NCBI GenBank assembly: GCA_017507765.1
Contig: JAFWAG010000032.1
Span: 20,919 to 84,918, forward strand
DNA from: Alphaproteobacteria bacterium
Lineage (GTDB): Bacteria; Pseudomonadota; Alphaproteobacteria; CACZRW01
Direction of reading: 5' to 3'
Length of the DNA: 64,000 nucleotides
Numbering within the stretch: position 1 is the first letter of the stretch; every line of letters starts with the position of its first letter. This document shows, in pieces, positions 8,114-42,723 of this stretch. The position numbers and the translations under genes were made by a program. A model generated the notes under the pieces. It was not told the origin of the DNA and ran no database searches. It saw only the letters and a program-made list of their open reading frames with translations.

Positions 8114-8200
8114 CTTGGTAACCCTTTAAATAGTTAGTATCGGTATTTTATACTGTTTTATGGATTTTTTTAAAGGGTAAAAAACATAAAAAAGCTTTTC

Positions 8201-8632: not shown

Positions 8633-8640
8633 ATCATTAC

Positions 8641-24755: not shown

Positions 24756-25910
24756 ATGATTAAAGTTTTACGATTTTTCGCCATCTTTTTGCTGTTTGCG
24801 GCATCTGCTCCTGCTGTTTCCCAAGCCGGAGAGTCAAGCATTCAGAATATAAGAGTGGCGAATCATGCCGATAACGTTATGCGCTTGGTTATCGATTTAT
24901 CCGAAAAAAGCGGATATAAAGTTTTTACCTTAAAAAATCCCGAACGCTTGGTCATTGATATTGAAAATACGGATTTTGCCGAAGACCTTAATCCTCAGCT
25001 AGCGAATATAAATTATTTGAATAAACTCCGATTTGGAAAAATGGAAAACGGAGTCGGGCGCATAGTCGCCGAAGTAGACTTCCCGCCAGAAGTAAAAAAA
25101 GATTTTATTTTGCCGCCCCAAAGCGGTTTTGCATGGCGTTTGGTTGTCGATGTGGAAACCACCAAAAGCGATTACGCCGAAGTTGAAAAGAAGAAAGAAG
25201 TTGCCGCAAAGCCTGTTCGTAAACCTTTGCTGATGATTGATGCAGGACACGGCGGAAAAGATTGCGGCGCTATCAGTATAAGCGGCTCGTACGAAAAACA
25301 CTTAACTTTGAAAATGGCAAAAGAATTACGGGATAAGCTGTTAAAAACCGGACGATATAATGTAATGATGACCCGCAGTGATGACAGAGCATTGGCCTTA
25401 CGTCAACGGGTGCAAATGGCAAGAAATGCTAAAGCTGACGTATTTATATCTATTCATGCGGACAGTGCGCATAATTCTGCGGCAAAGGGGCTTTCCGTTT
25501 ATACCTTATCCGAAAGAGCTTCCGACAGTGAAGCGGCGGCTTTGGCGGAACGAGAAAACAAAGCCGATGCGGTAATAGGTATGGATTTCAGCGATAAACC
25601 CCAAGACGTTGCAACCATTTTAATTGATTTGGTACGCCGTGATACGATGAATAACTCTTCTATTCTGGCGGATTATATGGTCGTAGAAATGAAAAAGAAT
25701 GTAACCGTTCTGCCAAACACGCATCGCTTTGCCGGATTTGCGGTTTTAAAAGCTCCGGATATACCTTCGGTGTTGGTAGAAATCGGTTACTTATCAAACC
25801 GCAAAGAAGAGCTTATGCTCCGGCGACCGGAATACAGAGAAAAACTCGCTTCTTCCATGGTGAAAGCTTTGGATAAGCTGTTTAAAAACCACAATATTAT
25901 GGATAAATAA
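24756..25910 (+). CDS. amiC: N-acetylmuramoyl-L-alanine amidase with N-terminal AMIN domain (AmiC-like)
   Basis: 384 aa; signal peptide; AMIN-like beta domain; amidase_3 motifs MIDAGHGGKDCGAI, ISIHADS, VLVEIGYLSN. Confidence 0.85.
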   Translation: MIKVLRFFAIFLLFAASAPAVSQAGESSIQNIRVANHADNVMRLVIDLSEKSGYKVFTLKNPERLVIDIENTDFAEDLNPQLANINYLNKLRFGKMENGVGRIVAEVDFPPEVKKDFILPPQSGFAWRLVVDVETTKSDYAEVEKKKEVAAKPVRKPLLMIDAGHGGKDCGAISISGSYEKHLTLKMAKELRDKLLKTGRYNVMMTRSDDRALALRQRVQMARNAKADVFISIHADSAHNSAAKGLSVYTLSERASDSEAAALAERENKADAVIGMDFSDKPQDVATILIDLVRRDTMNNSSILADYMVVEMKKNVTVLPNTHRFAGFAVLKAPDIPSVLVEIGYLSNRKEELMLRRPEYREKLASSMVKALDKLFKNHNIMDK

Positions 25911-25915
25911 ACTAA

Positions 25916-27799
25916 CTACCTTACCGGCGGAACGTTAAACTGGGCGATATAGCCAGGCTTTATCGTTGTATAGCCATAACGCATATTGCCGGTTTCTATC
26001 AGATATCTTTGAACGCCGGTCATCTGGGCAACCAACGGATAGAAATCTTTTGCCTGAACATCACGGCGCTGATAGTTCATTAAATACAATACGCAACCTT
26101 GACTCTTTTCGGCAATACCGCAACGCTGACGACCACGAGGCACTTCCGGATTGGAAACTACACCACTTAAACCGGAAGGCTTGTTGGAACAAGAATCACC
26201 GCCGCCCATAAAGGTGCCTAAAATAATTCCAAACAGTAAAATACCGCCGAAAATAAAGCTTATGTACTTAGTCGTAAGTACCTTGGGCGGAAGATTAAAG
26301 CGAACGGCAAAATTATCATCATATAAACCGGAAGACGCTGTTTCTTGGGCTTCTTGGTTCGCCAGTTCTTCCGCTGTACGAGCGAAATTATGGCTTGGCT
26401 TTTCTTCCTTATGGTCAGGAAGTTCTTTGGCAATTCCCATAGGCTTATCCGATGCCGGAACATGAGGTGCCGGAATAGGAGAAGCAGAAGAAACAGGAGG
26501 AGTTTTTGGTTCTTCTTTGTTATCTGTACGAACTTCTTGGAACATATGCATTGATTTCTGTACCGGAGGTACACCATGACCGCCACCAAGTACCGGAGGA
26601 GGCGCAACACGTTGCCCCAAAGAAACCGGAGGCGGAACTTTCGGCATGGCAGGCTCTGACGGTGCAGATGCAGGAACCGGCGCCGGAGATACAGGAGCCG
26701 GAGTAGCCGGAATAGTCTCAACCGGAGTAGCCGGCGCAGGGGGAACAGGTGCCGGAGTAGCCGGAATAGGCTCAACCGGAGTAGCCGGCGCAGGGGGAAC
26801 AGGCGCCGAAGGAACAGCTTCTGCCTCCATGGCTACGGGGTCAGATGCCGGAGCGGCGGGCATTTCCGGAACAACAGGTTCGGATATTTCTGAAGCGGCA
26901 GGCTCGAGAACTTCTGTAACAGGATTTTCCGGTGCAGCGTCTTCCTGCTTTTGATAGCTTTCCGGCACCGAAATGTCTTCGGCAAAATCATGAATATCCT
27001 TCACGTCTTGCATAGGTGTTGTAAGAGACGGTGTTACTTCGGTGATATTAAATGCCGGCATAGAACTTGGTGCTTGTTCGGGAACCGGTTCAGGTTCAGG
27101 CTCAGGTTCCGGCGTTATTTCTACTTCCGGAGCGGGAGCGGAGTCTTCCTCCAATGCCGGAGCTTCGGCAGGGAGTTCTTCAACCGGTTCAGGCTGAGGC
27201 AAAGCGTCTTCATCTTCATCATCAAAGATTGACGGTGCAGGTTCTGGCGCAGGAAACTCGTTAACTTCCGCCTCAACAGAAACTTCTGCTTCGCTTTCCG
27301 TTTCCGGAGCGGGAACGGAGTCTTCCTCTAATGCCGGAGCTTCGGCAGGAAGTTCTTCAAGCGGCTCTGGCTGAGGCAACGAATCTTCGTCATCAAAGAT
27401 TGACGGTGCAGGTTCAGGTGCAGGAAACTCGTTAACTTCGGATTCCACAGGAGCTTCCGGCTCTGCTTCCGGTTCGGCTGTCGGTTCAGCGGGAGCTTCT
27501 TCCACAGGTTCGGCAATGTCTTCTATGTTTTCTGCGACAGGGGCTGCTTCAATCTCCGCTTCCGGAGTAGAAGCAGACGGTGCGTCCATAACCGGATTTT
27601 CCGGCGCAGGAACAGCTTCCTCTGAGGCAACAGGAGGTATTGTATTCATATCAACGGTCGGTTCTTCAGATGCTTGAGCAACTGCCGATACCGGAGCGGA
27701 AGAAACTGCCGCAGGAGCTTTTACCGCTATGGGGCGCTTGATTACCTTAACCACTTTTTTGATTACATGGGGTCTACGTTTCAAATCCCGCTCGTCCAT
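25916..27799 (-). CDS. Pro/Glu/Ala-rich repetitive protein with a single TM helix near the C-terminus and a small Cys-containing C-terminal domain
   Basis: 627 aa; basic N-terminus; long EP/AP-rich acidic region with internal repeats; TM YISFIFGGILLFGIILGTFMGG at about aa 525-547; about 90-aa C-terminal domain (GRQRCGIAEKSQGCVLYLMNYQRRD...). Confidence 0.5.
   Translation of the reverse strand: MDERDLKRRPHVIKKVVKVIKRPIAVKAPAAVSSAPVSAVAQASEEPTVDMNTIPPVASEEAVPAPENPVMDAPSASTPEAEIEAAPVAENIEDIAEPVEEAPAEPTAEPEAEPEAPVESEVNEFPAPEPAPSIFDDEDSLPQPEPLEELPAEAPALEEDSVPAPETESEAEVSVEAEVNEFPAPEPAPSIFDDEDEDALPQPEPVEELPAEAPALEEDSAPAPEVEITPEPEPEPEPVPEQAPSSMPAFNITEVTPSLTTPMQDVKDIHDFAEDISVPESYQKQEDAAPENPVTEVLEPAASEISEPVVPEMPAAPASDPVAMEAEAVPSAPVPPAPATPVEPIPATPAPVPPAPATPVETIPATPAPVSPAPVPASAPSEPAMPKVPPPVSLGQRVAPPPVLGGGHGVPPVQKSMHMFQEVRTDNKEEPKTPPVSSASPIPAPHVPASDKPMGIAKELPDHKEEKPSHNFARTAEELANQEAQETASSGLYDDNFAVRFNLPPKVLTTKYISFIFGGILLFGIILGTFMGGGDSCSNKPSGLSGVVSNPEVPRGRQRCGIAEKSQGCVLYLMNYQRRDVQAKDFYPLVAQMTGVQRYLIETGNMRYGYTTIKPGYIAQFNVPPVR
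26697..26810. repeat. 57-bp perfect-ish tandem repeat x2 (encodes PAPATPVExIPATPAPVxP)
   Basis: agccggagtagccggaatag(t/g)ctcaaccggagtagccggcgcagggggaacagg(t/c)gcc is repeated back-to-back. Confidence 0.6.
27125..27440. repeat. Two about 140-bp direct repeats (178-bp period) encoding VNEFPAPEPAPSIFDDED..LPQPEP.EELPAEAPALEEDS.PAPE
   Basis: Copies at 27125-27268 and 27303-27440 are about 90% identical. Confidence 0.6.
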
Positions 27800-27831
27800 T
27801 TCTTTCCTCGATATATTCCTGTTGGTTTATA

Positions 27832-29070
27832 TTATTGGCTATTGCCTTCTTTGATAATCCGGACAATCTTCGGGCTTAATACCATGGCAATTTCCGAATT
27901 GGCGTATTGTGGTCCTAAGATATCCGAAGGTATGCCGATGATAAGGAAGTTATCACCGATTTCCGATGCAAAAGACGGGAAATTGGTTATTTCACCTTTG
28001 GTTGAATCTATGACCAAAGAACCAACAATCTTATCCGTACCTTCAACGGTAGCTTGCGCCAAAACCGATAATTGCGATTCCGGATTTTCTATCTTTCCGC
28101 AACGGCCAACATCAAAACGGGAACGCCAGTTATCCGGAACCATAAAGACACCTTCGGAAACCGGAACTACAGAAGCGTGCTGACCAACAAAATTCAAGAA
28201 ACGGCGAGTGCTGATTTCATTATTTTCCGTAATAATCATACGGCCGATAACGCCTTTGACACTGCTGCGTATGCTGTTCGTGCCATATTTATCAACCAGT
28301 TTCTGCCAATCTATGGTGGAAGTTCCAGCATAAGGAGTAATCCGGAAAACCCGTACATCAAAAGCAACAATGTTTGGTTCGGTATCAAAAACTTTTATCA
28401 GTTTTTCAACTTTCTGCTGAACTTCTTTGGTACCAAGGAAGGTGATGGTTTTATTATCCCAGTCGGCAACAACATCACGAATGCCCGCACCTCTTAATGC
28501 GTCCAGAACCGCAATCATAACCGGACGGGAATCAGGAACCTGTAATTTCCACTGGTTATGCCGCATAAGGCGAAGCGTTTTTGTTTCGGCATTATAGCGG
28601 TAATAAACACCCGAAGTGTTAGCAATATTATTCAAAACCGTACCAAGTTCGCCCTTCATATTTTTGCCGGACAAAACCGGATAAGGGCCTTTTTCCGCAA
28701 CGACTTTAATTCCGGCTTCCTTCACCAATTTTAAAAAGACTTTATCGGCACTTAATCCGGCGAAAGAAAATCCGGTTACTTCGTAACGAGGCAAGGCATC
28801 GGAAGCTCTGGCTCCGCTGAGTTTAAATGCAGACTGGCGGAAAGGAACCGTGGTGATGATGTCCTGTTCATTAAAACGGACAAAACAACGGCTGGCAGCT
28901 TCCAAACTAAACAACTCTGCCGTCTTGGTAGTGCGGGGAGCAAGCAATTTCGTATCTTTAAAAACTCCGGGAGCAACCGCATCGGCGGCAACTGTCTCGC
29001 TTGAAAAAACGGCTAAACCGGCAACCAATCCTAAAACGGCGAACAGTTTTTTATAAATCTTGTCTGACAT
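27832..29070 (-). CDS. Periplasmic/outer-membrane protein with a secretin-N (NolW-like) domain and a possibly degenerate secretin-like C-terminal motif
   Basis: 412 aa; signal peptide; segment VMIAVLDALRGAGIRDVVADWDNKTITFLGTKEVQQKVEKLIKVFDTEPNIVAFDVRVFRI fits the secretin N1 pattern (...D.rtNsli..g.......v..lI..lD....v.iev.i.ev); C-terminal GIPSDILGPQYANSEIAMVLSPKIV resembles the secretin C-terminal 'PiLG..F.....EL.vf.TP.iv' motif. Confidence 0.45.
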   Translation of the reverse strand: MSDKIYKKLFAVLGLVAGLAVFSSETVAADAVAPGVFKDTKLLAPRTTKTAELFSLEAASRCFVRFNEQDIITTVPFRQSAFKLSGARASDALPRYEVTGFSFAGLSADKVFLKLVKEAGIKVVAEKGPYPVLSGKNMKGELGTVLNNIANTSGVYYRYNAETKTLRLMRHNQWKLQVPDSRPVMIAVLDALRGAGIRDVVADWDNKTITFLGTKEVQQKVEKLIKVFDTEPNIVAFDVRVFRITPYAGTSTIDWQKLVDKYGTNSIRSSVKGVIGRMIITENNEISTRRFLNFVGQHASVVPVSEGVFMVPDNWRSRFDVGRCGKIENPESQLSVLAQATVEGTDKIVGSLVIDSTKGEITNFPSFASEIGDNFLIIGIPSDILGPQYANSEIAMVLSPKIVRIIKEGNSQ

Positions 29071-29244
29071 TTTTCGCTAATACCTCTTAAAAAACCATAG
29101 TCTTAAACTTTATAAATCCTGAAAACAGCCTCTAAACCTTCGGAGCGGACGAAGGCGCTCCCGTTACAACAACTTTCTTTATCACATTTCTTACCACATC
29201 AAGGTTCATAGATACAGTATTTTCTTTCGTAGTTTTTGCCATAT

Positions 29245-30150
29245 CTATGCGTCCGGAGCAGTATTGTTATCACTTGCCGGTTCAAAATCACCCAAATCCG
29301 GTATCGGTTCAAAGCCATCTGGAGCAGGACCGATTGGACCTTCGTCTTCATCTGTGGCCAAATCCCCCAAGCCGGCACGGATTTTTACAACATCAATCTC
29401 TTCATCAACCATTTCCGGAGGTGCGTTGTCGGCAAGTTCTTTTTTAAAGTCAGATAAAAGCTTGGCAAAAGCCTCTTCCTTGCCGGGGAACTTTGCATCA
29501 ACAATGGCTTTATAGTCATCATTATCGGAAATTGCTTCACCAAAGCCGACGATTTCGTCCAAAACGTCCAGAACATACCCATAATACTTATAATGGCTCA
29601 TTTCCATACCGCCAAGCTGAACACAGCGAGCGCCGACCCTTGAAATCGTTTGATCATAATAATCTTTAAGACGCATAAAATGGTCAAAGTTCCATAATAA
29701 TTCTTCCGAAAACTCCGGTGAAGGTTCCGGAACAGGTTCGTCGTTTACCGATGCTTGTGTTTCGCCTTCCGGCATATCGGCGACCAAAATCTTTAACTTT
29801 TCCGTAACGGCCTTGCCGGCGTCGCCGAAAATGGCAAGCCAATATTCCAAAACCGGCAGTCGTTCACTGATATGCGCTTTATCGACACCATCTGCTTCCA
29901 AAAGACGGTTGGCTTCGTCCCACGCCAAAACACCGTTTTCATAATCCAATGCCCGCTGGAAATTAGCTCTGGAAGTATCTCCGTCCGGCGGAGGAAGCTC
30001 GGCAAGCAAAGAAGGAATGATATCTCGCCAGTTGTTACCAAAGCTCTGCTCTGCCGCAGTGGACAAACGAGTCAAAACTTCTATGTCATCTTGATAAGCA
30101 AGAAGCAGAGGAATTAGCTGCGTCAGGGCTTTTCTTTCATCTTCGGTCAT
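29245..30150 (-). CDS. Hypothetical acidic cytoplasmic protein
   Basis: 301-aa ORF; strongly acidic (DE-rich) C-terminal third; no TM or signal peptide. Confidence 0.45.
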   Translation of the reverse strand: MTEDERKALTQLIPLLLAYQDDIEVLTRLSTAAEQSFGNNWRDIIPSLLAELPPPDGDTSRANFQRALDYENGVLAWDEANRLLEADGVDKAHISERLPVLEYWLAIFGDAGKAVTEKLKILVADMPEGETQASVNDEPVPEPSPEFSEELLWNFDHFMRLKDYYDQTISRVGARCVQLGGMEMSHYKYYGYVLDVLDEIVGFGEAISDNDDYKAIVDAKFPGKEEAFAKLLSDFKKELADNAPPEMVDEEIDVVKIRAGLGDLATDEDEGPIGPAPDGFEPIPDLGDFEPASDNNTAPDA

Positions 30151-30245
30151 TTTCTTATCCGTACCTTATTGTCCTTTGTCGTATATTAAAAGCTGTTTGG
30201 CAATATTTCAACTGTTGCTGTCATGATTTATGTTTTTCCTGTTTC

Positions 30246-33200
30246 CTATGCTGCTCGACCTAAATCCAATCGGACTTTTACACCTTTGGAAGAGGCAAAA
30301 ACCAAACATGGACCGGTAGCTTTCTTCCTTTTCTTTGATTTATCCTTTAACCAGAAAGATGCACCCGTATTTAAAGGCTTTTCTCGAACCGGAGAAATTA
30401 TAACTTTTTCGATAATCGTATTTGTGGCTAGGTTCTTATAATCGACAGGCTCGGAAATATCCTCTTCAGAAACGGCGGAGACAGTTTCGGCAGCAGTTTC
30501 TGTTTCCTTTGCTTCCGGCTCTTCTTTGGAGACAGTAACCGGTTCGCTTGCTTCTGCCTCAGGTTCTGTTTTCGGAACTACAGGCTCGTCAATTTGTACG
30601 GTCGGTTCATTTGCTGCTTCGGAGTAGTCAATATCAATAGCAACGGTTTGTTCCGGTATTAAAGGAATGGCCGAAGGACGCATCGGAGTTGCAAAAGAAA
30701 CCGGATCAAGCATTTCCATTTCTTCGTCAAAGATTAAATCTTCACTGGTAAGATTTTCATCAAAATACAAATCTTCGGGAAGAGGTGTGGCATAAGTCGA
30801 TGAAACATCGCTACCGAAGGAAGATATAACCTCATCAAGATAGGCATCAACCGTAAACTCTGCAGCATCGGCGGTATCAGCAAAGTATAAATCTTCTTTA
30901 ATCGGTTCCGGTTCGGGAACAACTTCTTTGACGGCTTCGACCTTGGGTTCGGATACAACAGGTACCGGTTCTTGGGCGGTTTCGGAAAGTGCCTCTTGTA
31001 TGGCTTCGACTTCTTCTACAGGTTCCGGCTCGGTGGCGGCAAGCTCTTCCGGTTCGGTTTCAAGAACGGGTATATCTTCTTGGGCGGCTTCAATCTCAGA
31101 TACCTGCGGTTCGGCTTGCTCATAAACAGCCTCTTCATCAGCACTTGCCTGCAAGGCTTCAAACTCTGAGGCAGAAACCGTGATTTCATTACCGTCTTGG
31201 TCAACGGTTATGTATTCGTATTCATACTCATATTCGGCATCATCGGAAACATCTGCTTCGCTTACAACTTCCTCTGCTGTTACCGCTTCAGCTGTGAAGT
31301 CAAGTTCTCCGGATTGGTCGTCAACATAAACAGTGTCTTCGCTTTCTTCCGTTTCGGCGGTAAGGGCGGCGGCTTCTATTTCTTCTGCGGTTTCGGCAGT
31401 TAAGGCAAAGCCATCATCTTTGGCAACCGGAGCTTCACTTATAACTTCCAGAACTTTTGCAGGTTCAGCCGTGAAATCAAGTTCGCCGGACTGTTCATCA
31501 ACAAAAACAGGCTCGGAAGGTTCTGCTTCGGTTTCAATGGCGGTTGAAGCAAGTTCTTCCTCTGTTTGCGGAGTTAAAGTAAAGCCGTCATCTTCGGCAA
31601 CCGGAGCTTTGGTATCATTTTCCGTGATAACTTCATATTCGACCGCTTCTGCTTCCGCTTCAAGTACAGGCTCCGGTTCAACTTCCGGCATCGCTTCGGG
31701 CAATGCTTCTTCCCAAACTGCTTCCGGTTCCGGCTCGGGTTCAGTGACGGCAAGCGGTTCCGGTTCGGGTTCGGCGGTCTCTTGTATGGCTTCGATTTCT
31801 TCTACAGATTCCGGCTCTGGTTCCGGTTCGGAGATTACTTCTTCCCAAACTTCTTCCGGTTCAGGTTCGGGTTCAGGCTTGGGCATTACCACGAATTCGT
31901 CTTCATCAAAAGAACCGTAATCCGGCTCTAAGTATGTATCATCGTACATATCCGAAGCGGAAATATCTTCTTCGTATACTTCTTCCGCCTCTGCGCTTTC
32001 CTCTTCAAAATCTTCGGCGCTGACGTATTCGTATTCAACGTTTTCACGTTCAACCATTTTTTCCAAAATGGAGCTTAAAACCTGACTGGTTTTTTCCTGA
32101 CTGGCAACCAACATTTCCATAACGTTGCGATTGTCATTACCCGCAGAGACCGGCAAACCGGTAACCACAGCCAAAGCATCAGAGACTATCTGCGCAGTCT
32201 TTTCCTGACTTTGGGCAAGCATAGCGGCAATTTCTTTGATTGCGGCGTCTTTATCTTCTTCCGGTTCGTCCTTTTCTTTACTGGCGGTTAAAGCATCGGA
32301 AATGATATGAGCGGTTTTTTCTTGGCTTTCGGCTAACATAGCCGCTATTTCTTTGATTGCGGCGTCTTTGTCTTCTTCCGGCTCGTCCTTTTCTTTACTG
32401 GCGGTTAAAGCGTCAGAAATAATCTTTGCGGTTTTTTCCTGACTTTCGGAAAGCATGGAAGCGACTTCTTTCAAGTCTTCGTTATGTTTTTCTTCCGGTC
32501 GGTTTAAGGTGGCTTTTACGGCTTCGGAAATAATTTGAGCCGTTTTTTCCTGACTTTCTGCCAACATATCGGCAAAATCATGGATATTTCCTCCGCTATC
32601 GCTTACTTGCACCGGAGGACGTTTAGTTAACGCTTCGCCCAAAGCTTTGGAGATAATTTCCGAAGTACTTTCCTGACTTTTTACCAAAGCATCGGCAACG
32701 GCGGAAGCTATGGCATCTGCGGTATTGCCCGCAGAAGCCATGGGAGGATAATAACCGTCGTCATATTCCTCTACATATTCGTATTCTTCGTCTTCATCGC
32801 CATCTTCGCCTTCTTCGGAGTTTTCATATCCTTCTTCATCGGAAACACCTTCGCCCTCTTCGTCTCCCTTTTTGCGTTTGCGGCGTTTTTTCTGATGAGC
32901 GGTAAAGAAATTACTTTGGGCTTCCTGTAATGCGGCGGTTATCTTGGTTATATCTTCAGCAGAAGCATTGCGGTTTTGCGCTGCGGCTAAGGTTTTAGTC
33001 AACTGTTCGACCTGAGCCATAGATTGCTCTTGCATCTTTTCTGCGGTCTGCTGATGACTTAAAGAAATGGCTTCCGCAATTATCTTTGCTCTGGCCTTTT
33101 CCTCTTCCAGTTTTTCTTCATCAATCTCTATCTCTTCTTCAACGACAATGCCTCGCTGTTCCTGAAGATAGGCAATATAACCACGAACGTCGGCACTGAA

Positions 33201-33431
33201 AGGAAGCTTAGAAAGCTCTTCCTTCGTTTCCGGCGTAATGTTTAAAAGCATTTCGTTATAACGTTCTTGAGCTTCGGGACTTAAAACCGAAAGCTGACGG
33301 AAGATATTTATAAACTTTTGAGCGCGATCACGGTTGGTTTCTGAGGTAGCTCCGTCTCCGCCCCCTTCGGTAACCCCGAGGAACTTCCTTTTCCAACGAT
33401 TTAAATCTGACAAACGTGTAGATTTAGCCAT
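30246..33431 (-). CDS. Giant highly acidic repeat protein (candidate secreted effector/surface protein) with a basic C-terminal tail
   Basis: 1061 aa; three internal repeat families (39-aa ESQEKTAxIISDAL units x6; about 60-aa xDDGFxLTxxTxEExxxxAxxTExEx...VDxQSGELDFTAE x2; EPEPEP tracts); C-terminus WLKDKSKKRKKATGPCLVFASSKGVKVRLDLGRAA is net positive. Confidence 0.55.
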   Translation of the reverse strand: MAKSTRLSDLNRWKRKFLGVTEGGGDGATSETNRDRAQKFINIFRQLSVLSPEAQERYNEMLLNITPETKEELSKLPFSADVRGYIAYLQEQRGIVVEEEIEIDEEKLEEEKARAKIIAEAISLSHQQTAEKMQEQSMAQVEQLTKTLAAAQNRNASAEDITKITAALQEAQSNFFTAHQKKRRKRKKGDEEGEGVSDEEGYENSEEGEDGDEDEEYEYVEEYDDGYYPPMASAGNTADAIASAVADALVKSQESTSEIISKALGEALTKRPPVQVSDSGGNIHDFADMLAESQEKTAQIISEAVKATLNRPEEKHNEDLKEVASMLSESQEKTAKIISDALTASKEKDEPEEDKDAAIKEIAAMLAESQEKTAHIISDALTASKEKDEPEEDKDAAIKEIAAMLAQSQEKTAQIVSDALAVVTGLPVSAGNDNRNVMEMLVASQEKTSQVLSSILEKMVERENVEYEYVSAEDFEEESAEAEEVYEEDISASDMYDDTYLEPDYGSFDEDEFVVMPKPEPEPEPEEVWEEVISEPEPEPESVEEIEAIQETAEPEPEPLAVTEPEPEPEAVWEEALPEAMPEVEPEPVLEAEAEAVEYEVITENDTKAPVAEDDGFTLTPQTEEELASTAIETEAEPSEPVFVDEQSGELDFTAEPAKVLEVISEAPVAKDDGFALTAETAEEIEAAALTAETEESEDTVYVDDQSGELDFTAEAVTAEEVVSEADVSDDAEYEYEYEYITVDQDGNEITVSASEFEALQASADEEAVYEQAEPQVSEIEAAQEDIPVLETEPEELAATEPEPVEEVEAIQEALSETAQEPVPVVSEPKVEAVKEVVPEPEPIKEDLYFADTADAAEFTVDAYLDEVISSFGSDVSSTYATPLPEDLYFDENLTSEDLIFDEEMEMLDPVSFATPMRPSAIPLIPEQTVAIDIDYSEAANEPTVQIDEPVVPKTEPEAEASEPVTVSKEEPEAKETETAAETVSAVSEEDISEPVDYKNLATNTIIEKVIISPVREKPLNTGASFWLKDKSKKRKKATGPCLVFASSKGVKVRLDLGRAA
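31291..31610. repeat. Two about 145-bp degenerate direct repeats (176-bp period) inside the acidic giant gene
   Basis: Copy 1 at 31291-31437 and copy 2 at 31467-31610 (agc(t/c)gtgaa(g/a)tcaagttc(t/g)ccgga...ggcaaccggagctt). Confidence 0.55.
32100..32720. repeat. About 5-6 tandem copies of a 117-bp (39-codon) repeat inside the acidic giant gene
   Basis: Recurrent ...gcggttttttc(c/t)tg(a/g)ctttcgg(a/c)(a/t)a(g/a)catagc(g/c)gc(a/t)atttctttgattgcggcgtcttt(a/g)tcttcttccgg(t/c)tcgtccttttctttactggcggttaaagc(a/g)tc(g/a)gaaat...; the two central copies are near-identical and the outer ones degenerate. Confidence 0.6.
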
Positions 33432-33512
33432 CTCGTTCTCTAATAAACCAAGCCTTAAACTTTAACCGCTTCTTGATTCTAAAGGAAAGAAAGTTAACAT
33501 ATGGTAATTTTA

Positions 33513-33546
33513 ATAAAAAAACCTCTTGAATCAGAGGTTTTTTTTA
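33513..33546 (-). terminator. Rho-independent terminator after the HTH regulator gene (symmetrical, usable in both directions)
   Basis: AAAAAAA-CCTCT-tgaatc-AGAGG-TTTTTTTT: 6-bp GC stem extended by A/U pairs and flanked by T-runs on both strands. Confidence 0.55.
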
Positions 33547-33568
33547 TAAAGATATGTAAGTTTAAAAA

Positions 33569-34636
33569 TTAAGCCAGCGAAATGTATACGATTTTATGCA
33601 AAACTTCACCGGCAGAGATTTTTACTCTTTCGTCCGGATTAAGCTGAAGACCATAGATATTTCCTTCGCCATCTTCTCTCAGGCTGAGCAATTTTACCGT
33701 ATTTTCCGCAGTGTATAACAGACCGAGGTCTCCGGGACCTGCCTCTTTACCGGGGTCAACAACAAATATCGCCCGAGCCGGAAGGAAAGTTCCCAAACGG
33801 CGAGAGGAAGATATGCTGACTGCATAGGCTTGATGCGGGTTAGAAACGGACGGAGGACACATGATTGCACCGGACGGATTGTTTTTATCAATAATGATAT
33901 CTCCGTTATCACCAGGTTTGCCGTAAACATTTAAGGAAACTTCACTGCGTTCCCGAGATTTAAGCCCCATACGGCCAATCGGCAAATCAGCGTAAGAGTT
34001 CTTTGCCGAAGTTACGGCACGGAACTTTGCATCTCCGGGCTGAATAAACTCTTCCAAAGCTCCGGTCTTATCCAAATCATAGACTTTGAGCTGAAGCTCT
34101 TCCGGTGTAAAACCAAGTGCCAAGGAAATATCCGAAAACTCTTTTTGGGTAACTTCTCTTTGACCCATTTCTATCCGGTGGTAAACCGAAAGCGTCAAAC
34201 CGGCTGCCGCTGCAACTTCCGCCAAAGTTAAATCCTTTTGCCCGCGAAGATAACGGAAACCGGCACCCATAGTCTTTATACCGCTTCGTTCATTGATTTT
34301 GCTGCGACGTTCCTGTTCTTGCCGCCAAGCAGCTACGACTTCCGGCTGAGACGTGGCTTCGTTGACAAAAATGTCCTGAGGATTGCATTTCAGAAAATCC
34401 GCAACTCTGACTAATTGCTCTTTATCTATCCGGCGGTATCCTTTTTCAATTTTGCTGACCGCAGAAAGGCTGATGCCTAAGAAATCGGCAAGCTCCTGCA
34501 TCGAAAGATTGCGGATACGGCGATATATTCTTATCTGGTTCGGAAATATAATTTCTTCCATGGTTCTTCCCCTTAATGATAAATCATGCAAAAACCCTTT
34601 TAAACACGGGATTTTATGCCGTAACTTTAACAGCAA
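33569..34636 (-). CDS. Transcriptional regulator with two XRE-type HTH domains and a C-terminal LexA/CI-like (peptidase S24-like) domain
   Basis: 355 aa; HTH1 IRIYRRIRNLSMQELADFLGISLSAVSKIEKG; HTH2 FRYLRGQKDLTLAEVAAAAGLTLSVYHRIEMG; C-terminal beta-rich segment ending ...TVKLLSLREDGEGNIYGLQLNPDE...GEVLHKIVYISL resembles the S24 fold, but the canonical GxSM Ser motif is not obvious. Confidence 0.6.
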   Translation of the reverse strand: MLLKLRHKIPCLKGFLHDLSLRGRTMEEIIFPNQIRIYRRIRNLSMQELADFLGISLSAVSKIEKGYRRIDKEQLVRVADFLKCNPQDIFVNEATSQPEVVAAWRQEQERRSKINERSGIKTMGAGFRYLRGQKDLTLAEVAAAAGLTLSVYHRIEMGQREVTQKEFSDISLALGFTPEELQLKVYDLDKTGALEEFIQPGDAKFRAVTSAKNSYADLPIGRMGLKSRERSEVSLNVYGKPGDNGDIIIDKNNPSGAIMCPPSVSNPHQAYAVSISSSRRLGTFLPARAIFVVDPGKEAGPGDLGLLYTAENTVKLLSLREDGEGNIYGLQLNPDERVKISAGEVLHKIVYISLA

Positions 34637-34680
34637 TTTGACAAAAATCCAGTAATTTTCTCAAAAAATTAGCGAAAAAA

Positions 34681-36387
34681 TTATGAATTGCGATCTGCTT
34701 CGTCGTTAAAGTGGCGATTCCAACGGTCGGCAGCATTGCGGGCAATGTTCTTAGCGCTAAATCTTTGCTTGGCAGAGGTTTTAAACTTATCTTTAAGATT
34801 TTCGCCAAAATTATTCTGAATATTCTTAAGGTTATCCTTAACTCTTTGCGGAGCGGCAGCAATATTATTTCCAAACGTTTTAACCTTATCTCCGGCGAAG
34901 TCTTTAAACTGTTTCGGCATGGCTTTAGCCCGACTTTTAGCATCATTAGCAAACTTCTTCACCGAAGCTCTGGCAGCTGCTCGTCCAGACTTGGTAGCCA
35001 AAGAAGTTATTGCTTTAGCGGCTTTGGCGGCACCGGCTGCCGCAGTGGCCGCTCCCTTGGCAGCAAAACCGACAGCTGCCGCACCACCCGTAGCAACCGT
35101 GGTCGCAAGCATGGCAACCGTAACCGCCGCCTGAACGGTGGTGGTAACCATGGCCGCCATTTTTGCGCCCACAGCCGCACCGATATTCGTACTTTGCAAT
35201 TGGGAATCAATGGAAACAAAATGGTTGGCTACGGCTTCCGACTTACTTAACAACATTAAAGCGATAATAGCGATAGCGAGGAATAAAAGCCAATCTACAC
35301 CATTGACATAAATATGCTGATATAACTGCTGAACCTGATCATTATTTAACATACTGTCAAGCTCTTCGGAACGGCCGATAGATTCCATAACTATCTTTAA
35401 AATCAACGCCATGCCTATGGCAAGAGCAAGCAATGCGACCAGTGCGTGCAGGAATAAATCCCAAGCTTTCTTCGTATACTTCCGTGTTATCGGGAAAACC
35501 CATGCGACCATAAGCAACGGCAACAGCATGGTTACAAAGCTGATACGAATGACAAAATCGATAACTCGGAAGGAAAAGCTTAAAGTAATTATAAAGAAAA
35601 CCAGCATTACCAAGAGACCGATAACAAACATACCCATATCGGGAATCTTGATTATCCACAAGTCTACTCGTCCCATGGAATAGCAATAAATACAGTTGCC
35701 GAGTGCGGTTCCTTTGGCGGCTTCTATATACATAGAGCGAATTACACAGCTTAGAGCGCTTTTAATCTGAGGAGACAGCGCCAGATGAGAAGAAGAGTCT
35801 CCGTAAACAACGTTGCCTTTTGAATCATATGAAATCGAAGAGCTTTCAGAGTTCTGAAACTGTTGGCAAATATCGTTTTTGATAAGTCCGGAAGCAATCG
35901 CAGTATCCGCACTTTGGACATTTAAGTCCGTAGATAAAATCCCCAAAGTAAGCTCTGTCGCCATGGAAACTACCGGCGAAACGACAAGGTCAAAAGCCTT
36001 TTGCGTCGGAATGGTCAAAATCGCAGCTATTAACGTCGTACGGAAAAAACATTTACCGATTTCGGTGAAAAAACCTTCCGGAGCTTGATACTTATAATTC
36101 ACAAAATACATACCGAAATGCCACAGTATCCAAAGCCCTAAACCAATTATCAGCAAATATAAGGACGGTTTTTTCAACGTGTTGTAACAAGCCGTAACAA
36201 CATTGTTGACGGCATCAAAAATCATATCGACAAAGGTACAAATAAGACAGCTGCTATAAAGCTCTGACATTACTTCGGTAGCTGTTTTACACGCAGCATA
36301 AGCAGAATCGGGAAACAAGCATACGCAGACAAGCGCAATTGCAAACGCTATTTTTCCGACCGTATTTTGTCCCTTTTTCGTAAACAT
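34681..36387 (-). CDS. virB6: VirB6/TrbL-like type IV secretion polytopic membrane protein, paralog 5
   Basis: 568 aa; signal peptide; CxxC motif (SSCLICTFVDMIFDAV) followed by a W-rich TM (GLGLWILWHFG) as in the four paralogs upstream; about 6 TM; Lys/Ala-rich hydrophilic C-terminal tail. Confidence 0.65.
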   Translation of the reverse strand: MFTKKGQNTVGKIAFAIALVCVCLFPDSAYAACKTATEVMSELYSSCLICTFVDMIFDAVNNVVTACYNTLKKPSLYLLIIGLGLWILWHFGMYFVNYKYQAPEGFFTEIGKCFFRTTLIAAILTIPTQKAFDLVVSPVVSMATELTLGILSTDLNVQSADTAIASGLIKNDICQQFQNSESSSISYDSKGNVVYGDSSSHLALSPQIKSALSCVIRSMYIEAAKGTALGNCIYCYSMGRVDLWIIKIPDMGMFVIGLLVMLVFFIITLSFSFRVIDFVIRISFVTMLLPLLMVAWVFPITRKYTKKAWDLFLHALVALLALAIGMALILKIVMESIGRSEELDSMLNNDQVQQLYQHIYVNGVDWLLFLAIAIIALMLLSKSEAVANHFVSIDSQLQSTNIGAAVGAKMAAMVTTTVQAAVTVAMLATTVATGGAAAVGFAAKGAATAAAGAAKAAKAITSLATKSGRAAARASVKKFANDAKSRAKAMPKQFKDFAGDKVKTFGNNIAAAPQRVKDNLKNIQNNFGENLKDKFKTSAKQRFSAKNIARNAADRWNRHFNDEADRNS

Positions 36388-36396
36388 TTTCTTCTC

Positions 36397-36618
36397 TTAT
36401 GCGTCCTTTTCTTCGGCGGTTTCTTTAGGTTGAAGAGACGGAAGCTTAGCCTTCTTTGTCTTCCAAGTCAGCCATCCGGCGGCAGCAAAACTTAAAATTA
36501 TCACTGCTCCGGAGGTTATATAAACCAACCTGCTGTCAAGCAATCCGGAAAGTCCGGTTGCTCCAAAAATAATTATCAGAACTATAAAACTAAGATAGTA
36601 TACCAGATTTCTTAACAT
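36397..36618 (-). CDS. Small 2-TM membrane protein embedded in the virB6 array (possible VirB3/VirB2-like accessory subunit; unassigned)
   Basis: 73 aa; two hydrophobic helices then a charged tail; tight spacing (20 bp after paralog 4 stop, 9 bp before paralog 5 start). Confidence 0.4.
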   Translation of the reverse strand: MLRNLVYYLSFIVLIIIFGATGLSGLLDSRLVYITSGAVIILSFAAAGWLTWKTKKAKLPSLQPKETAEEKDA

Positions 36619-36638
36619 CTTAGTCCCCTTTTTTCCAA

Positions 36639-38099
36639 TTACGGCTGAGCATTATTGCCTCCGCCTTTTTTCATTGCCGCCAACATGGCTAAACCAACAC
36701 CGCCTTGAGCTATCAATGCACCCGCTCTCATAAGGCGGCTCATCGCCTTACTGAATACCGCCGAGTTTGCTTTTGCTCCCGCAAACTGCGCCGCCATGCG
36801 GTTCATCGTGCCGATAAGCTTTATCAAATAAAGACCCAAGAATATCATCAAAAACATAGCTATCGGGAAGTTAAGGTTCGATTCAACAAACTTTGGATTG
36901 GCATCAATAATCTTTCCCGTCTCCATATAGCATATATCACCTACGGAACTTTTATCTCCGACCATAAGCTCATCAGATACACATTTCCAAAGGCTGTCGG
37001 ATTTATAGCCAACTACGCAAGTTTCCTTTTCTTCACCAATAGTGGTTTTATATTTTATACAGGTTCTGGGCATAACAACGCCAGAGGACGGATCCAACAT
37101 TTCATCTTGTCTGGAAACATATCCTTGTAAAACTTCCGGTTGATTCAAAATCAGCTTTTCCGGATCAAAGATATCCAGCTTCATAGTAAACTGTACCATG
37201 ATTTCTATCGCTAAGATTAGGAAGATAGCTATCATCACTATTTGCATAAACGTGGATAGGAAAATGTTCCAACCGACAATGGCGTATTGCCGCAAAAGCT
37301 TAAACGGCCAAAAGGCGATAAATATCGGCAGTAAGACAAATGCAATGCCAAGCTTGAACAAGCCGTCAACAATATAAAACGGGAAAAGAAAGTTCAAAAC
37401 ACCGAAAACAAGGAAGATGCAAATACCGAAAACTACGGCAATAAAGTCTCCGCTAGCTATCATTTTCTGGGCAAAAAAGTTACCGTACACCATGCGGGTA
37501 TGCATCTTTGCTATCAGACAGGAAAACGCATCGGATACGCCTTGCTGTAAAGCGTGGCCGCTGTCAATAACCATACTGTCAAAGGTATTGTTACAAGCAC
37601 TGTAATTAGTTCCATAACTGCCAAAACCGGAATTGATTACCGCCAGCGATAAATCAATAAATCCTTGGAAGACCGGCACAATCGTATAGCTTATCAGAGC
37701 AAAAATCGTATCTGCGCTCATCAGCAAAACGCCGCAGCATAAAACCGCAAAACTGGTTTTAAGCGAGTCGGTCCAGAACTGATTAACATCAGGCATTTTA
37801 TAGCTTAAAAACAATTTGCCGACATGGAAGAGTATCCAAATCGCAAAGCTTATCGCCATTAAAGCAAGCGCACCGTTCGCTATTTCATGATAAAAGACGA
37901 TAATCAAACTGTCCAAAGCGGCAAAAATCGTTTTGAAGATTGAGCAGCTCCAACAATGGCTCATATAGTCTTTTTCCAGTTCTTCCAAAGAAACGTCATA
38001 ATCCTTTGGGTTGCAGCCGGACAAAAGCAAGCAGGCTACTATTCCCACAAACAGGAAAAGCAGTTTAAAAAGCATCTCTTTTTTTTGTTTTTTATCCAT
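36639..38099 (-). CDS. virB6: VirB6/TrbL-like T4SS membrane protein, paralog 4 (lipoprotein-type signal peptide)
   Basis: 486 aa; LLSGC lipobox; MSHCWSCSIFKTIFAALD motif; multiple TM. Confidence 0.65.
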   Translation of the reverse strand: MDKKQKKEMLFKLLFLFVGIVACLLLSGCNPKDYDVSLEELEKDYMSHCWSCSIFKTIFAALDSLIIVFYHEIANGALALMAISFAIWILFHVGKLFLSYKMPDVNQFWTDSLKTSFAVLCCGVLLMSADTIFALISYTIVPVFQGFIDLSLAVINSGFGSYGTNYSACNNTFDSMVIDSGHALQQGVSDAFSCLIAKMHTRMVYGNFFAQKMIASGDFIAVVFGICIFLVFGVLNFLFPFYIVDGLFKLGIAFVLLPIFIAFWPFKLLRQYAIVGWNIFLSTFMQIVMIAIFLILAIEIMVQFTMKLDIFDPEKLILNQPEVLQGYVSRQDEMLDPSSGVVMPRTCIKYKTTIGEEKETCVVGYKSDSLWKCVSDELMVGDKSSVGDICYMETGKIIDANPKFVESNLNFPIAMFLMIFLGLYLIKLIGTMNRMAAQFAGAKANSAVFSKAMSRLMRAGALIAQGGVGLAMLAAMKKGGGNNAQP

Positions 38100-38118
38100 G
38101 CTTTACTTTCCTTTACAG

Positions 38119-40581
38119 CTATGACCGAGTTGCTTCCGAAGCTTTAATTGCGCTCTGATAATTTGCGAATTGAGTTTCACTCATCGTCAGAACCCGCTTT
38201 ACATCTTCACTGCCGTTAGCAATCCGTTCATAAACCTTTTGCTCTTCATAGGTAGTGGCCGTGCCTTGGCGGACTTTTGCCACTAAGTCTACATCATTTT
38301 TCATTTTATAAAAACTGTTGCCGTCAAGAGCGTTCATTTCCGCAAGACGCTGCTCGGAAGTCGTTCCGGTTATACCGTAAACTTCGCCTTTATAAACCAA
38401 AGCCTCTCTTTCCGCTGCGGACATTCTTTCAACCGCATCGGCACCGTAAACATTGCGGAGTATTTGAGCATTTCTATATGCTTGTTCGGCACTGTTTACC
38501 CCACCAATACCTTCGTTATAGATACTGTTGGCATTGGCATTACGACGCAAAGCAATTTTTGCCTGTAAAGATTCCCGGGTGGAATAAGAACCGTCTACAT
38601 TTAAGGCTTTCTTCGCCAATTCGATATCCTGCGGTACGGCATTAAAAGAAGCACTGTTCATACCGGCGTATCTTGAAGTTTTTGCATCGGCAACATAGGT
38701 ATTATATCCGGCGCTTGAAGCACTGCCGGAACCTGAACCTCCGCCTGCCCCACCACTGCCGGAGCTGGAAGAGCCGCCGCCTTTATATCTTTGTTTAGGT
38801 GCAGCGCCCATAGAGCTAATCATACTCCGGCTAGCACGCCAGTTGGCTAAACGACCGTTGCCTTTTTGAGATTCCAGAACTCCCATTGTCGCAGAGGCTT
38901 GGGTTACAACCGCAGCGACATTGGCGCTTACCATGCCTAAGCGGTCGCCAATGTCTGAGCCTATGGAAACGTTGGAAAAGTCTGTCGCAATCTGATCAAT
39001 CAAAGATAAAATCTTTATGGCAAAAACACAGCAAATAGCCGCAATGATGAAGTTAAAGGTGGAAAATTGTATTGCTTCATTCATTTTGTATACTTGGTTC
39101 GTGTTAAAGTAATCCTGCAAGGTTGAGGCTTCTTTTAGAAGCGTACTGCTGGATATGGTTTCACTGTTACCGCCAAAAGCTATTTCCACCAAAGCTATCG
39201 CTAATGACAAGACTATAGCCATGGAAATAAATACCATCACGACATGAAGCAAAAGATAGAAACCTTTTTTCGCAAACTCTATCGTTGGCGGAAATACCCA
39301 CGCAACAATTAACATCGGCAATAAAACCAATAAAAATCCCAACCGGAAACAAGCGTCTATCAGTTTAAAGACAAAAAGCAATGTCAAAAGGAAACAAACT
39401 AGCCAAATGACAACGCCCGTAAACAACATTTTAAGACTGGGGAATTGAACCGGTAAAATACCGGACTGTTCCGCCGTCCAAGCATGGCATAAAATCGAAG
39501 ATGACATGGCAAGTCCATAGGCGGTAGTATTATATAAATTACCGACCATACACATAAGTGCGTTATAAAGCTGACTGTTCAAAGCGGCGTTTTCCGTGCC
39601 GGACGGTTCGGTTTCCATAAGAACACAATAATGCGGAAGCATACTTACACCCAGAAGACCTATAATAGCATCGTTCTGGTCTTGCTCCATAGCTTGAATC
39701 TCGCTCTCTTTCTTTCTATCTAAGTCATGGATAGCCGCCTGACAATGGACAGAAAGCGTACAGGCTCCTTCCGGAGGATTGGCTTTACATTCGTTACATT
39801 CTGCTTTTTGTTTCGCATTCATTAATATATCCAACCCACCACATGGAGAAGCACAGGCATAACGAGCGTACACTTCGTTCTTTTGCAAGCGGTATTTTTC
39901 TTCTATCTGTTGCCTTTCCACCTGATAATTACGGTCTAAGTCGGAAATCTGGTCAGCGTTGGGACGTATCTTATCCGTTCCGGTAAAGCCTTGGGTAACC
40001 GCCATGCTGACTTCTGTCGCTCCGACAATTATGGGCGAAATCAATAAATCCGTAACCATGCTGACCGGCTGAACAAGGATTGCTCCGGCAAGCATTGCTT
40101 TGCACAAAATGGAAATAATGCCTTCAAAAAACTCAACCGGATTTTGTTCCGCCAGAGAACCGATATACCTGCCGACCTGAATAATCAGCCAAATACCAAG
40201 GAATACAGTTAAAATCTCTATACAGCCATGGGCTATTTTGTTGTAAACCGCCGTGGCTAAGGTGTTAATTGAACGGAAAATCGTATCAAATAAAGTACAC
40301 GCCCAACAATTATTGACATGAGCAAGCAGAACCGAACCGCTTGCCGGACAGTCGCCGTGCAAAGCATCACTGTAAACTGCGGCGGATTGCCCAATGTCTT
40401 GAGCCCCTTCGGTGATAATTTCGTTGGCTCCGCTGACAACGTCATCAACGGTTTCTGTTTGCGTCTCGGTCGTATACTGCGTACCGGTTGTCTGAGCAAA
40501 GACAGGAGCGGACATCAGCCATAAAGCTATGGCTGCGCATGATATAGCCTTGATAAAAAATGTCTTTGGCAATTTTATCAT
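38119..40581 (-). CDS. virB6: VirB6/TrbL-like T4SS membrane protein, paralog 3, with long Gly/Ser-rich hydrophilic C-terminal extension
   Basis: 820 aa; signal peptide; VNNCWACTLFDTIFRSIN motif; about 6 TM; C-terminal GGGSSSSGSGGAGGGSGSGS plus about 200-aa hydrophilic tail. Confidence 0.65.
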   Translation of the reverse strand: MIKLPKTFFIKAISCAAIALWLMSAPVFAQTTGTQYTTETQTETVDDVVSGANEIITEGAQDIGQSAAVYSDALHGDCPASGSVLLAHVNNCWACTLFDTIFRSINTLATAVYNKIAHGCIEILTVFLGIWLIIQVGRYIGSLAEQNPVEFFEGIISILCKAMLAGAILVQPVSMVTDLLISPIIVGATEVSMAVTQGFTGTDKIRPNADQISDLDRNYQVERQQIEEKYRLQKNEVYARYACASPCGGLDILMNAKQKAECNECKANPPEGACTLSVHCQAAIHDLDRKKESEIQAMEQDQNDAIIGLLGVSMLPHYCVLMETEPSGTENAALNSQLYNALMCMVGNLYNTTAYGLAMSSSILCHAWTAEQSGILPVQFPSLKMLFTGVVIWLVCFLLTLLFVFKLIDACFRLGFLLVLLPMLIVAWVFPPTIEFAKKGFYLLLHVVMVFISMAIVLSLAIALVEIAFGGNSETISSSTLLKEASTLQDYFNTNQVYKMNEAIQFSTFNFIIAAICCVFAIKILSLIDQIATDFSNVSIGSDIGDRLGMVSANVAAVVTQASATMGVLESQKGNGRLANWRASRSMISSMGAAPKQRYKGGGSSSSGSGGAGGGSGSGSASSAGYNTYVADAKTSRYAGMNSASFNAVPQDIELAKKALNVDGSYSTRESLQAKIALRRNANANSIYNEGIGGVNSAEQAYRNAQILRNVYGADAVERMSAAEREALVYKGEVYGITGTTSEQRLAEMNALDGNSFYKMKNDVDLVAKVRQGTATTYEEQKVYERIANGSEDVKRVLTMSETQFANYQSAIKASEATRS

Positions 40582-40672
40582 CGCTTTGTCCTTTTAAAAA
40601 GCCTCCTATCCTTCAAATATTATAACCTTTTTCCCGTTCCTTTAGTATGACAGTTTTTTGATTCCTATCCCT

Positions 40673-42715: not shown

Positions 42716-42723
42716 TTCAACCT

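Follow-up and report, generated by a model that had tools for sequence, protein, structure and literature searches.

The stretch of DNA analysed here, hereafter the window, comprises 64,000 nucleotides of contig JAFWAG010000032.1 from an Alphaproteobacteria bacterium (assembly GCA_017507765.1); coordinates refer to the whole window, and its features lie on the minus strand unless marked otherwise. It carries a conserved four-gene operon, A-B-C-D, of uncultured gut and rumen Alphaproteobacteria, and protein A is the product of the first and fastest-evolving gene of this operon (30246..33431). A first-pass annotation made from the letters alone had described protein A as a candidate effector of a type IV secretion system (T4SS), and the open reading frame on which that proposal was built matches ours exactly, with an ATG start and a translation of 1,061 amino acids (aa). 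The predicted protein has a mass of 116.7 kDa and a pI of 4.05, with 19.0% Glu, 6.9% Asp and 7.7% Lys plus Arg. No 19-residue hydrophobic window reaches the transmembrane threshold, in agreement with the earlier statement that the protein lacks a signal peptide and transmembrane (TM) segments. A mere reading-frame artefact was ruled out by the conserved homologues and the synteny described below.

Protein A begins with a four-helix N-terminal domain (aa 30-100; 33132..33344), delimited by invariant alignment columns and carrying the family signature AQKFINIFRQLSVL ... YNEMLLN ... LP..DVRGYIAYLQE. AlphaFold modelled aa 31-95 with a predicted local distance difference test score (pLDDT) of ~90 and placed the helices at 33-45, 52-63, 67-75 and 79-93. 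After an acidic linker follow two further predicted helices, 105-153 and 158-179 (aa 105-179; 32895..33119; pLDDT 75-84), and then the run KKRRKRKK (aa 181-188; 32868..32891). This run, which had been noted for its resemblance to a nuclear localisation signal, is present as described but its position is not kept in relatives, and it is missing already in a 59%-identical homologue; internal poly-Lys runs ([KR] runs of at least six) occur in 52 of 99 long family members at variable positions. The adjoining aa 191-240 contain 44% Asp plus Glu. Next comes a helical region made of six SQE[KS]T[AS]xII units, each 37-41 aa long (aa 241-460; 32052..32711), with the motif at aa 252, 293, 330, 369, 408 and 444, and at the DNA level Tandem Repeats Finder detected a 117-bp period of 2.6 copies (32173..32471, score 402).

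The remainder of the protein up to its tail is a hyper-acidic, Pro-rich and fast-evolving region (aa 461-1000; 30432..32051) with 32.4% Asp plus Glu and 2.4% Lys plus Arg. It is the only long region for which the previously stated share of about one third Glu/Asp holds, the figure for the whole protein being 25.9%. This region contains EPEPEP tracts at aa 520, 535, 554 and 564 and shorter EPEP at aa 585, 801 and 840, the stretch EYEYEYITVDQDGNEI, the conserved GSFDEDEF motif (aa 506-513) and two units of 59 aa, in which DDGFxLT lies at aa 614/672 and QSGELDFTAE at aa 647/706, the latter closing each unit. Save for short motifs, it could not be aligned across homologues. Thus all three repeat families named by the first-pass annotation are present, with the VDxQSGELDFTAE-type units measuring 59 rather than 60 aa. 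The variation in repeat copy number that it anticipated was borne out when copy numbers were compared, since a 93%-identical homologue (P0002, 1,022 aa) is without one 39-aa unit.

The protein ends in a basic and hydrophobic motif (aa 1024-1061; 30249..30362; FWLKDKSKKRKKATGPCLVFASSKGVKVRLDLGRAA) that is kept within the clade of ten homologues to which the window protein belongs and occurs as a single copy in the window. The ten-homologue alignment gives it the form FWxKDKSKK...(K)PFV...K[IV][ED]L, with W1027, K1029, K1031, S1032, K1034, P1041 and K1052 invariant or nearly so. Within the clade the tail is therefore a conserved motif and not a mere run of charge, which suggests a specific binding peptide. 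The strongly positive tail emphasized by the first-pass annotation is real, its net charge of +8 over the last 30 aa being the highest among 42 window proteins, but the family as a whole does not share it. When the last 30 aa were compared in the 99 family members that reach 450 aa, net charge had a median of -4, with 62 members at -3 or below and 10 at +3 or above; most end acidic, in ...DPYQNSILKD or in tails of the DWEWEYVED or IEILSDIEL type.

Protein A lies outside every described family and constitutes a new family of its own. Searches against Pfam, NCBIfam and PHROG returned no family above threshold, the sole match being a sub-threshold one to Sigma70_r4. A word-indexed search of 5.8 billion proteins recovered ten relatives (P0001-P0010), all unnamed, whose alignment shows a near-invariant N-terminus (RWKRKFLG, INIFRQLSVL, YNEMLLN, DVRGYIxYLQExRG) followed by a helical segment, SQEKTA repeats, a GxFDExEF motif, an unalignable acidic middle and the conserved C-terminal motif. 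When a profile of the N-terminus was run against 1.84 billion representatives, 294 clusters were found at E<=1e-3. All available names read "hypothetical protein", and the sources are metagenome-assembled genomes (MAGs) of Alphaproteobacteria from human gut, rumen and other animal samples. Members are typically 500-1,000 aa long and commonly combine the N-terminal domain with SQExxA-like helical repeats and acidic Trp/Tyr-rich repeats. Foldseek found no fold relative of the N-terminal domain model in the PDB (best E 0.66), PDB sequence searches with this domain and with protein C, as single sequences and as profiles, gave nothing meaningful, and tblastn of the domain against 72,556 plasmids gave 0 matches. 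The exact product of the window gene had no match in the contig index or in public records; P0001, the record closest to it, departs from it at a few residues, with changes near the KKRRKRKK run. The repeat-rich gene may have been assembled or called differently in public assemblies.

The three genes that follow A had no match above threshold in Pfam, NCBIfam or PHROG. Protein B (29245..30150) is a cytosolic acidic protein of 301 aa, with a conserved core of ~120 aa (aa 148-274) and no family match. Protein C (27832..29070; 412 aa, with a signal peptide), which is 100% identical to the NCBI MAG protein IKD08_03100 on a 318-kb contig, was recognised as a secretin homologue by AlphaFold and Foldseek. 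Its model (pLDDT 84.7, predicted TM-score 0.76) returned 31 matches at E<=1e-3, and the top 34 PDB matches were all secretins (BfpB, InvG, PilQ, GspD, pIV). The best of these was BfpB of a type IVb pilus (9u5s; E 1.9e-9), and the model aligned with secretins over its full length at a probability of 1.0. Global TM-scores against secretins were low (0.15-0.26), as the model and the solved structures orient their domains differently, and individual domains scored higher (EscC N-domains, TMt 0.47; PilQ N0, 0.50). The Pfam Secretin model does not detect C, but independent sequence hints agree with the assignment: Secretin_N matches weakly (E 0.015), and tblastn gave a weak match to an annotated plasmid secretin. 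The fold and the signal peptide together provide periplasmic N-domains, a C-terminal secretin barrel domain and an export signal. Among 41 homologues, 29 have the lipobox of a lipoprotein, a trait of type IVb pilus secretins as well. By its predicted fold, C is hence a cryptic, previously unrecognised secretin. An identity of D or C as VirB8 or VirB9 was rejected, as neither has a Pfam match and C has a secretin fold.

Hydropathy and sequence identify protein D (25916..27799; 627 aa) as a single-pass inner-membrane protein consisting of a basic N-terminal peptide, a disordered cytoplasmic region of ~460 aa, a TM segment at about aa 507-530 and a periplasmic domain of ~100 aa containing Cys. 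The periplasmic domain is conserved (44-54% identity in loci L001, L004, L007, L008 and L009 of the set described below) and bears the motif GRxRCG..QGCVLY..IETGNMRY..NIPP. The cytoplasmic region is 21% Pro and 22% Asp plus Glu, and ranges from ~30 to 500 aa between lineages. Within it lie a pair of near-identical units (VNEFPAPEPAPSIFDDED...LPAEAPALEEDS) and a tract, EPEPEPEP, resembling those of A. Fast-evolving low-complexity cytoplasmic regions are borne by A, B and D alike. Since C is a secretin by fold and D a bitopic protein with a conserved periplasmic domain, the operon would encode an envelope structure of which A and B are the cytosolic members.

The conservation of this gene order was assessed in 80 metagenome loci that were fetched with the A N-terminal domain pattern and scored with tblastn; they are redundant and represent ~12-13 lineages at <85% identity, across which the N-terminal domain is 28-59% identical. 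B, C and D follow A colinearly in all 27 loci with at least 7.5 kb of downstream sequence, and the same order was seen in L001, L003, L004, L007, L008, L009, L011 and L012. A T4SS gene (VirB6-like, VirB11, VirB10 or VirB9) lies within 10 kb of A in 21 of the 22 loci with both flanks of at least 9 kb. The arrangements differ: virB9-virB10-virB11 stand directly upstream of A-B-C-D in L007, virB11 is convergent on D in L008, and in L001 the VirB6 array is inverted and downstream. These differences point to selection on the linkage between A-B-C-D and the T4SS and not to mere inheritance of gene order. VirD4 was found within 10 kb of A in 0 of the 80 loci.

The neighbourhood was also searched for pilus genes. 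No assembly ATPase, platform protein, prepilin peptidase or pilin lies nearby in 90 of 92 loci, the 2 loci with a type IV pilin gene come from the same contig, no pilin-like N-terminus was found in the window, and the only T2SSE ATPase near the module is VirB11. A type IV pilus operon was accordingly rejected, there being no adjacent pilins, PilB-type ATPase or PilC-type platform protein, and so was a filamentous-phage pIV/pI module, for which neither phage genes nor a PHROG match were found. In one lineage, L001/L016, a gene at ~8150..8812 (minus strand) encodes a protein resembling a type IV pilin, with the N-terminus GRSMIEMLGVLAIVGVLS and a weak Pfam match to PilS; together with three small paralogous membrane proteins it is divergent from the regulator, and it is absent from the window and the other loci.

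Upstream of A lies a terminator-like hairpin with a U-tract (33515..33544; by sequence and RNA folding), which separates A from a regulator gene. It has a dG of -14.9 kcal/mol and a z of -5.25, and 0 of 200 shuffles were as stable; a consensus promoter/terminator scan of 25700..34900 performed no better than on shuffled sequence and overlooked it. The first-pass annotation had placed A in the co-directional block that follows the virB6 array and its regulator. The shared direction was confirmed, but the hairpin and U-tract after the regulator indicate that A probably starts a transcription unit of its own. The 95-nt gap between A and B contains no hairpin, and both features fit a single A-B-C-D unit.

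The regulator is an XRE-family protein with two helix-turn-helix (HTH) domains and a C-terminal domain (open reading frame 33569..34636, or 33569..34561 from the likely ATG at codon 26; Pfam HTH_3 twice). It stands directly upstream of A on the same strand in 71 of 73 loci and is 46-86% identical across related loci, with alignments beginning at residue 26. These figures hold across lineages in which the A N-terminal domain is only ~30-35% identical, and of the genes nearby only VirB11 is better conserved than the regulator. Its C-terminal domain (~150 aa) has no Pfam match and appears LexA/CI-like by eye; NCBIfam gives a weak match, through the HTH, to the Wolbachia male-killing protein Wmk.

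Beyond the regulator are five VirB6-like polytopic membrane proteins (34681..44454), tentatively named from sub-threshold TrbL/VirB6 matches: three of the five match PF04610 at E 8e-5 to 1e-3, under the gathering score, one matches NCBIfam TrbL at 1.3e-5 and one gives no match. They are paralogous to each other and to the arrays of related loci. In L008 (5001..8720) the last VirB6-like gene encodes 1,239 aa with Peptidase_M23 and VgrG3-like C-terminal domains, of peptidoglycan hydrolase type, and a T4SS acting on bacterial cell walls, its own or a rival's, may be indicated by these domains. Domain scans further identified VirB11 (53079..54056), a VirB10 of 2,831 aa (54096..62591) with 14 beta-flower repeats (PF21785/PF21784) and DUF3659 before the TrbI domain, and a VirB9 with a C-terminal SPOR peptidoglycan-binding domain (62588..63997). 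In L007 and L008, proteins of 1,099-1,755 aa result from a split of the VirB10 region or take its place. The T4SS of the window is a divergent P-type system. Three orphan genes near its components were also observed on the plus strand: 2297..3481 (394 aa, Lys-rich N-terminus and a YEE/WYE acidic tract), 44623..45327 (234 aa, the second most basic C-terminus in the window at +6, with a homologue in L009) and 45465..46394 (309 aa, N-terminal half acidic).

A VirD4-type coupling protein (9646..11847; Pfam T4SS-DNA_transf, 5.6e-55; NCBIfam) is encoded 18 kb from A. Its acidic tail ...DSDDDDEDE (EIVDSDDDDEDE) has a net charge of -10 over 30 aa. Its neighbours are a 427-aa protein with two TM segments, Lys-rich and acidic stretches and no Pfam family (11857..13140), and a 298-aa protein matching two PHROGs of unknown function (E ~1e-10), likewise with no Pfam family (8641..9537).

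These T4SS components bear directly on the proposal that A is a T4SS substrate, whose Lys-rich tail would be recruited by VirD4 for translocation into a target cell, whether eukaryotic or bacterial. Once there, its acidic repeats and short motifs would be active, and the small acidic cytosolic protein B encoded next door might be a chaperone, comparable to CagF for CagA. The tail of A, the most positive in the window, would complement the acidic tail of VirD4; T4SS genes adjoin A in nearly all informative loci, and in L007 A directly follows virB9-virB10-virB11. Protein A has no signal peptide or TM segment, its long disordered sequence should be easy to thread, and its repeat copy number differs between strains. 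However, positive charge at the C-terminus is confined to one clade, and the Lys-rich tail misfits the Arg-based Agrobacterium consensus. The conserved part of A is N-terminal and not C-terminal, no recognised effector or signal domain (BID, XVIPCD, ankyrin and similar) was detected in A by Pfam, NCBIfam or PHROG, and the KKRRKRKK run is not conserved. Moreover, A is strictly coupled to the secretin C and to D, never to VirD4, and basic peptides alike occur on the membrane protein D. Relatives of A share the N-terminal domain and fixed B-C-D partners, which comes near to the conserved role or domain in relatives that the first-pass annotation had named as speaking against an effector, at the level of domain and operon only. 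Of the original proposal, the T4SS linkage and the basic tail therefore stand, and the clade restriction of that tail, the N-terminal conservation and an operon locked to a secretin weaken the reading of A as a translocated effector, which on the sequence features weighed here is somewhat less likely than the scaffold proposed below.

The comparison of basic peptides extends beyond protein A. Several proteins of the module carry, in one lineage or another, a short basic peptide with the pattern hydrophobic-K..K[KR]P-hydrophobic: at the C-terminus of A in the window clade, at the C-termini of B in L018, L023, L038, L044 and L092 (e.g., VKMPIKRPAPG, KKVIKIKKPV) and at the cytoplasmic N-termini of D in the window (VIKKVVKVIKRPIAV), L013, L030, L044, L089 and L092 (e.g., LKKVKRPIKR). 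These peptides were spotted by eye and by an ad hoc regular expression, without statistical control. An integral membrane protein such as D is an unlikely T4SS substrate, so the peptide can be read as an assembly or membrane-binding motif. It may represent a docking motif shared by the module.

Taken together, we favour, tentatively, a role of A as a modular adaptor or scaffold in the cytoplasm, serving a secretin module that would be attached to the divergent T4SS, where the scaffold function, the cytoplasmic location of A and all physical interactions are what we infer. The four-helix N-terminal domain would dock onto a conserved partner, for which B, a T4SS ATPase and the cytoplasmic end of D are candidates. 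On the cytoplasmic side of the machine, the helical SQEKTA repeats would combine with the acidic, Pro-rich disordered region into a long polyanionic hub or tether, and the basic hydrophobic C-terminal peptide would act as a docking or membrane-binding motif instead of a generic secretion signal. Protein D would span the inner membrane and touch the periplasmic N-domains of C, in the way that GspC/GspB, PilP or BfpG do with their secretins. Conservation in A is concentrated at the N-terminus, as expected of a docking domain and contrary to what a C-terminal secretion signal would leave. Also counted in favour of a scaffold were the colinearity of A-B-C-D, the signs of a single transcription unit, the envelope proteins C and D encoded beside A, the recurrent basic peptide, the low-complexity regions of A, B and D, and the absence of VirD4 from the vicinity of A throughout the 80 loci.

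Several points weigh against this role. The N-terminal domain has no structural relative, so its description as a docking domain derives solely from the pattern of conservation. The redundancy of the loci means that 27 of 27 overstates the number of independent observations, and the basic peptide with its Pro is missing from some lineages and was compared by eye, without a significance test. The operon-first position, repeat variability and fast evolution of A equally fit a secreted cargo, and we know of no T4SS that uses a secretin or a scaffold of this kind, so that the proposal has no precedent.

Alternatively, A could be a dedicated cargo or surface fibre of a hybrid pathway, in which the N-terminal domain would be the targeting element, B an adaptor, the inner-membrane parts of the T4SS the exporter of A, and C and D the outer-membrane exit. 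In many secretion systems the cargo likewise joins a conserved N-terminus to a hypervariable rest, and the gene of the cargo or major subunit often comes first in fibre and secretion operons, as in bfpA-bfpG-bfpB and tcpA...tcpC. It would also suit such a pathway that C is closest to the type IVb pilus secretin BfpB and that the module is embedded in T4SS loci, with type IV pilin genes absent from 90 of 92. On the other hand, no T4SS is known to feed a secretin, the normal outer-membrane channel formers VirB9 and VirB10 are present, and an unfolded polyanion of 117 kDa would be atypical as a secretin substrate. Judged on these sequence and gene-order features, a cargo or fibre role appears improbable.

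A polar landmark or hub of the HubP/FimV/PopZ type, which would place the secretin and the T4SS at the cell pole and recruit clients electrostatically, was considered by analogy. HubP and FimV, two acidic repeat proteins, are required for polar organisation and PilQ secretin assembly, and A likewise unites extreme acidity, repeats and linkage to a secretin. Nevertheless, A has no LysM, TM segment, FimV C-terminal motif or PopZ domain, polarity cannot be assessed from sequence, and such a hub would be a special case of the scaffold and not a separate mechanism; we consider it improbable as an explanation in its own right. Membership of A in the FimV/HubP family was rejected because LysM, the TM segment and the C-terminal FimV motif are absent (Pfam, NCBIfam, hydropathy), and membership in the PopZ family because the PopZ (DUF2497) oligomerisation domain is absent (Pfam). 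A DNA mimic or anti-restriction protein was also rejected, as nothing beyond acidity supports it.

The wider locus could encode a hybrid machine, in which a divergent P-type T4SS, distinguished by multiple VirB6 paralogues, the 2,831-aa VirB10 and a SPOR-domain VirB9, has permanently recruited the lipoprotein secretin module A-B-C-D, with A as a cytoplasmic hub or as N-terminally targeted cargo. We regard such a machine as conceivable, though somewhat less likely than not. T4SSs and secretins are textbook separate solutions to the crossing of the outer membrane, so a secretin operon embedded in T4SS loci across gut and rumen Alphaproteobacteria lineages would, if true, be a new architecture. 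No description of a T4SS-embedded secretin module was found in literature searches that paired the T4SS or its VirB components with secretins, with gut or RF32 Alphaproteobacteria or with the beta-flower. Protein A is the defining and most variable gene product of the secretin operon, with ~294 homologous clusters of which none is annotated. The family-wide comparison also bears on prediction: the basic C-terminus, the run resembling a nuclear localisation signal, the acidic repeats and the T4SS proximity are features that effector predictors reward, and most of them proved lineage-specific here. Whether A is scaffold or cargo would indicate how an abundant uncultured gut lineage uses its T4SS.

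Among known systems, A can be compared with the VirB/VirD4 substrates that bear positively charged C-terminal signals. RalF and RARP-2 are among the rvh effectors of Anaplasma and Rickettsia, whose C-terminal tails bind RvhD4 (PMC11077975). Together with Agrobacterium VirE2/VirE3/VirF, the rvh effectors share with A the lack of a signal peptide, a basic C-terminal tail and a T4SS-adjacent gene, and as here a coupling protein is encoded in the same genome. Unlike them, A has a Lys-rich tail with a motif found in one clade, a conserved part that is N-terminal and a gene locked into a secretin operon. Ehrlichia TRP32/47/120 resemble A in that they are alphaproteobacterial, highly acidic and strain-variable, with tandem repeats and nucleus-directed motifs; they differ as type I substrates of obligate intracellular Anaplasmataceae, whereas A belongs to a conserved operon of gut MAGs. 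An Ehrlichia-type TRP was therefore rejected for A, the two being unrelated in sequence and TRPs being substrates of type I secretion.

The cag island of H. pylori encodes a giant repeat-bearing VirB10, CagY, and the ~120-kDa repeat-variable effector CagA, which has a Lys-rich C-terminus and the chaperone CagF. In both CagA/CagF and A/B, a large, repeat-variable protein with a Lys-rich end is encoded in a T4SS locus adjacent to a small acidic cytosolic partner, and a giant repeat VirB10 occurs in both loci (CagY; the 2,831-aa VirB10 here). The likeness is one of organisation only: CagA and A have no detectable sequence similarity, no Pfam match links them, and CagA is basic overall. To our knowledge the cag island is also without a secretin, unlike the A locus.

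Secretin machines offer the other comparison. HubP and FimV are, like A, very acidic, repeat-rich, largely disordered and linked to a secretin machine, but unlike A they sit in the membrane, with LysM in the periplasm and the FimV motif at the C-terminus. C and D recall BfpB-BfpG, TcpC-TcpQ, GspD-GspC/GspB, PilQ-PilP and f1 pIV-pI/pXI in combining a secretin fold with a bitopic partner that has a small periplasmic domain, and the homologues of C are mostly lipoproteins, like type IVb pilus secretins. In contrast to these known pairs, the neighbours of C and D are T4SS genes and not pilus genes. By analogy, the closest functional counterparts of A are thus the acidic hub proteins of secretin machines and the CagA-type effectors encoded within a T4SS locus.

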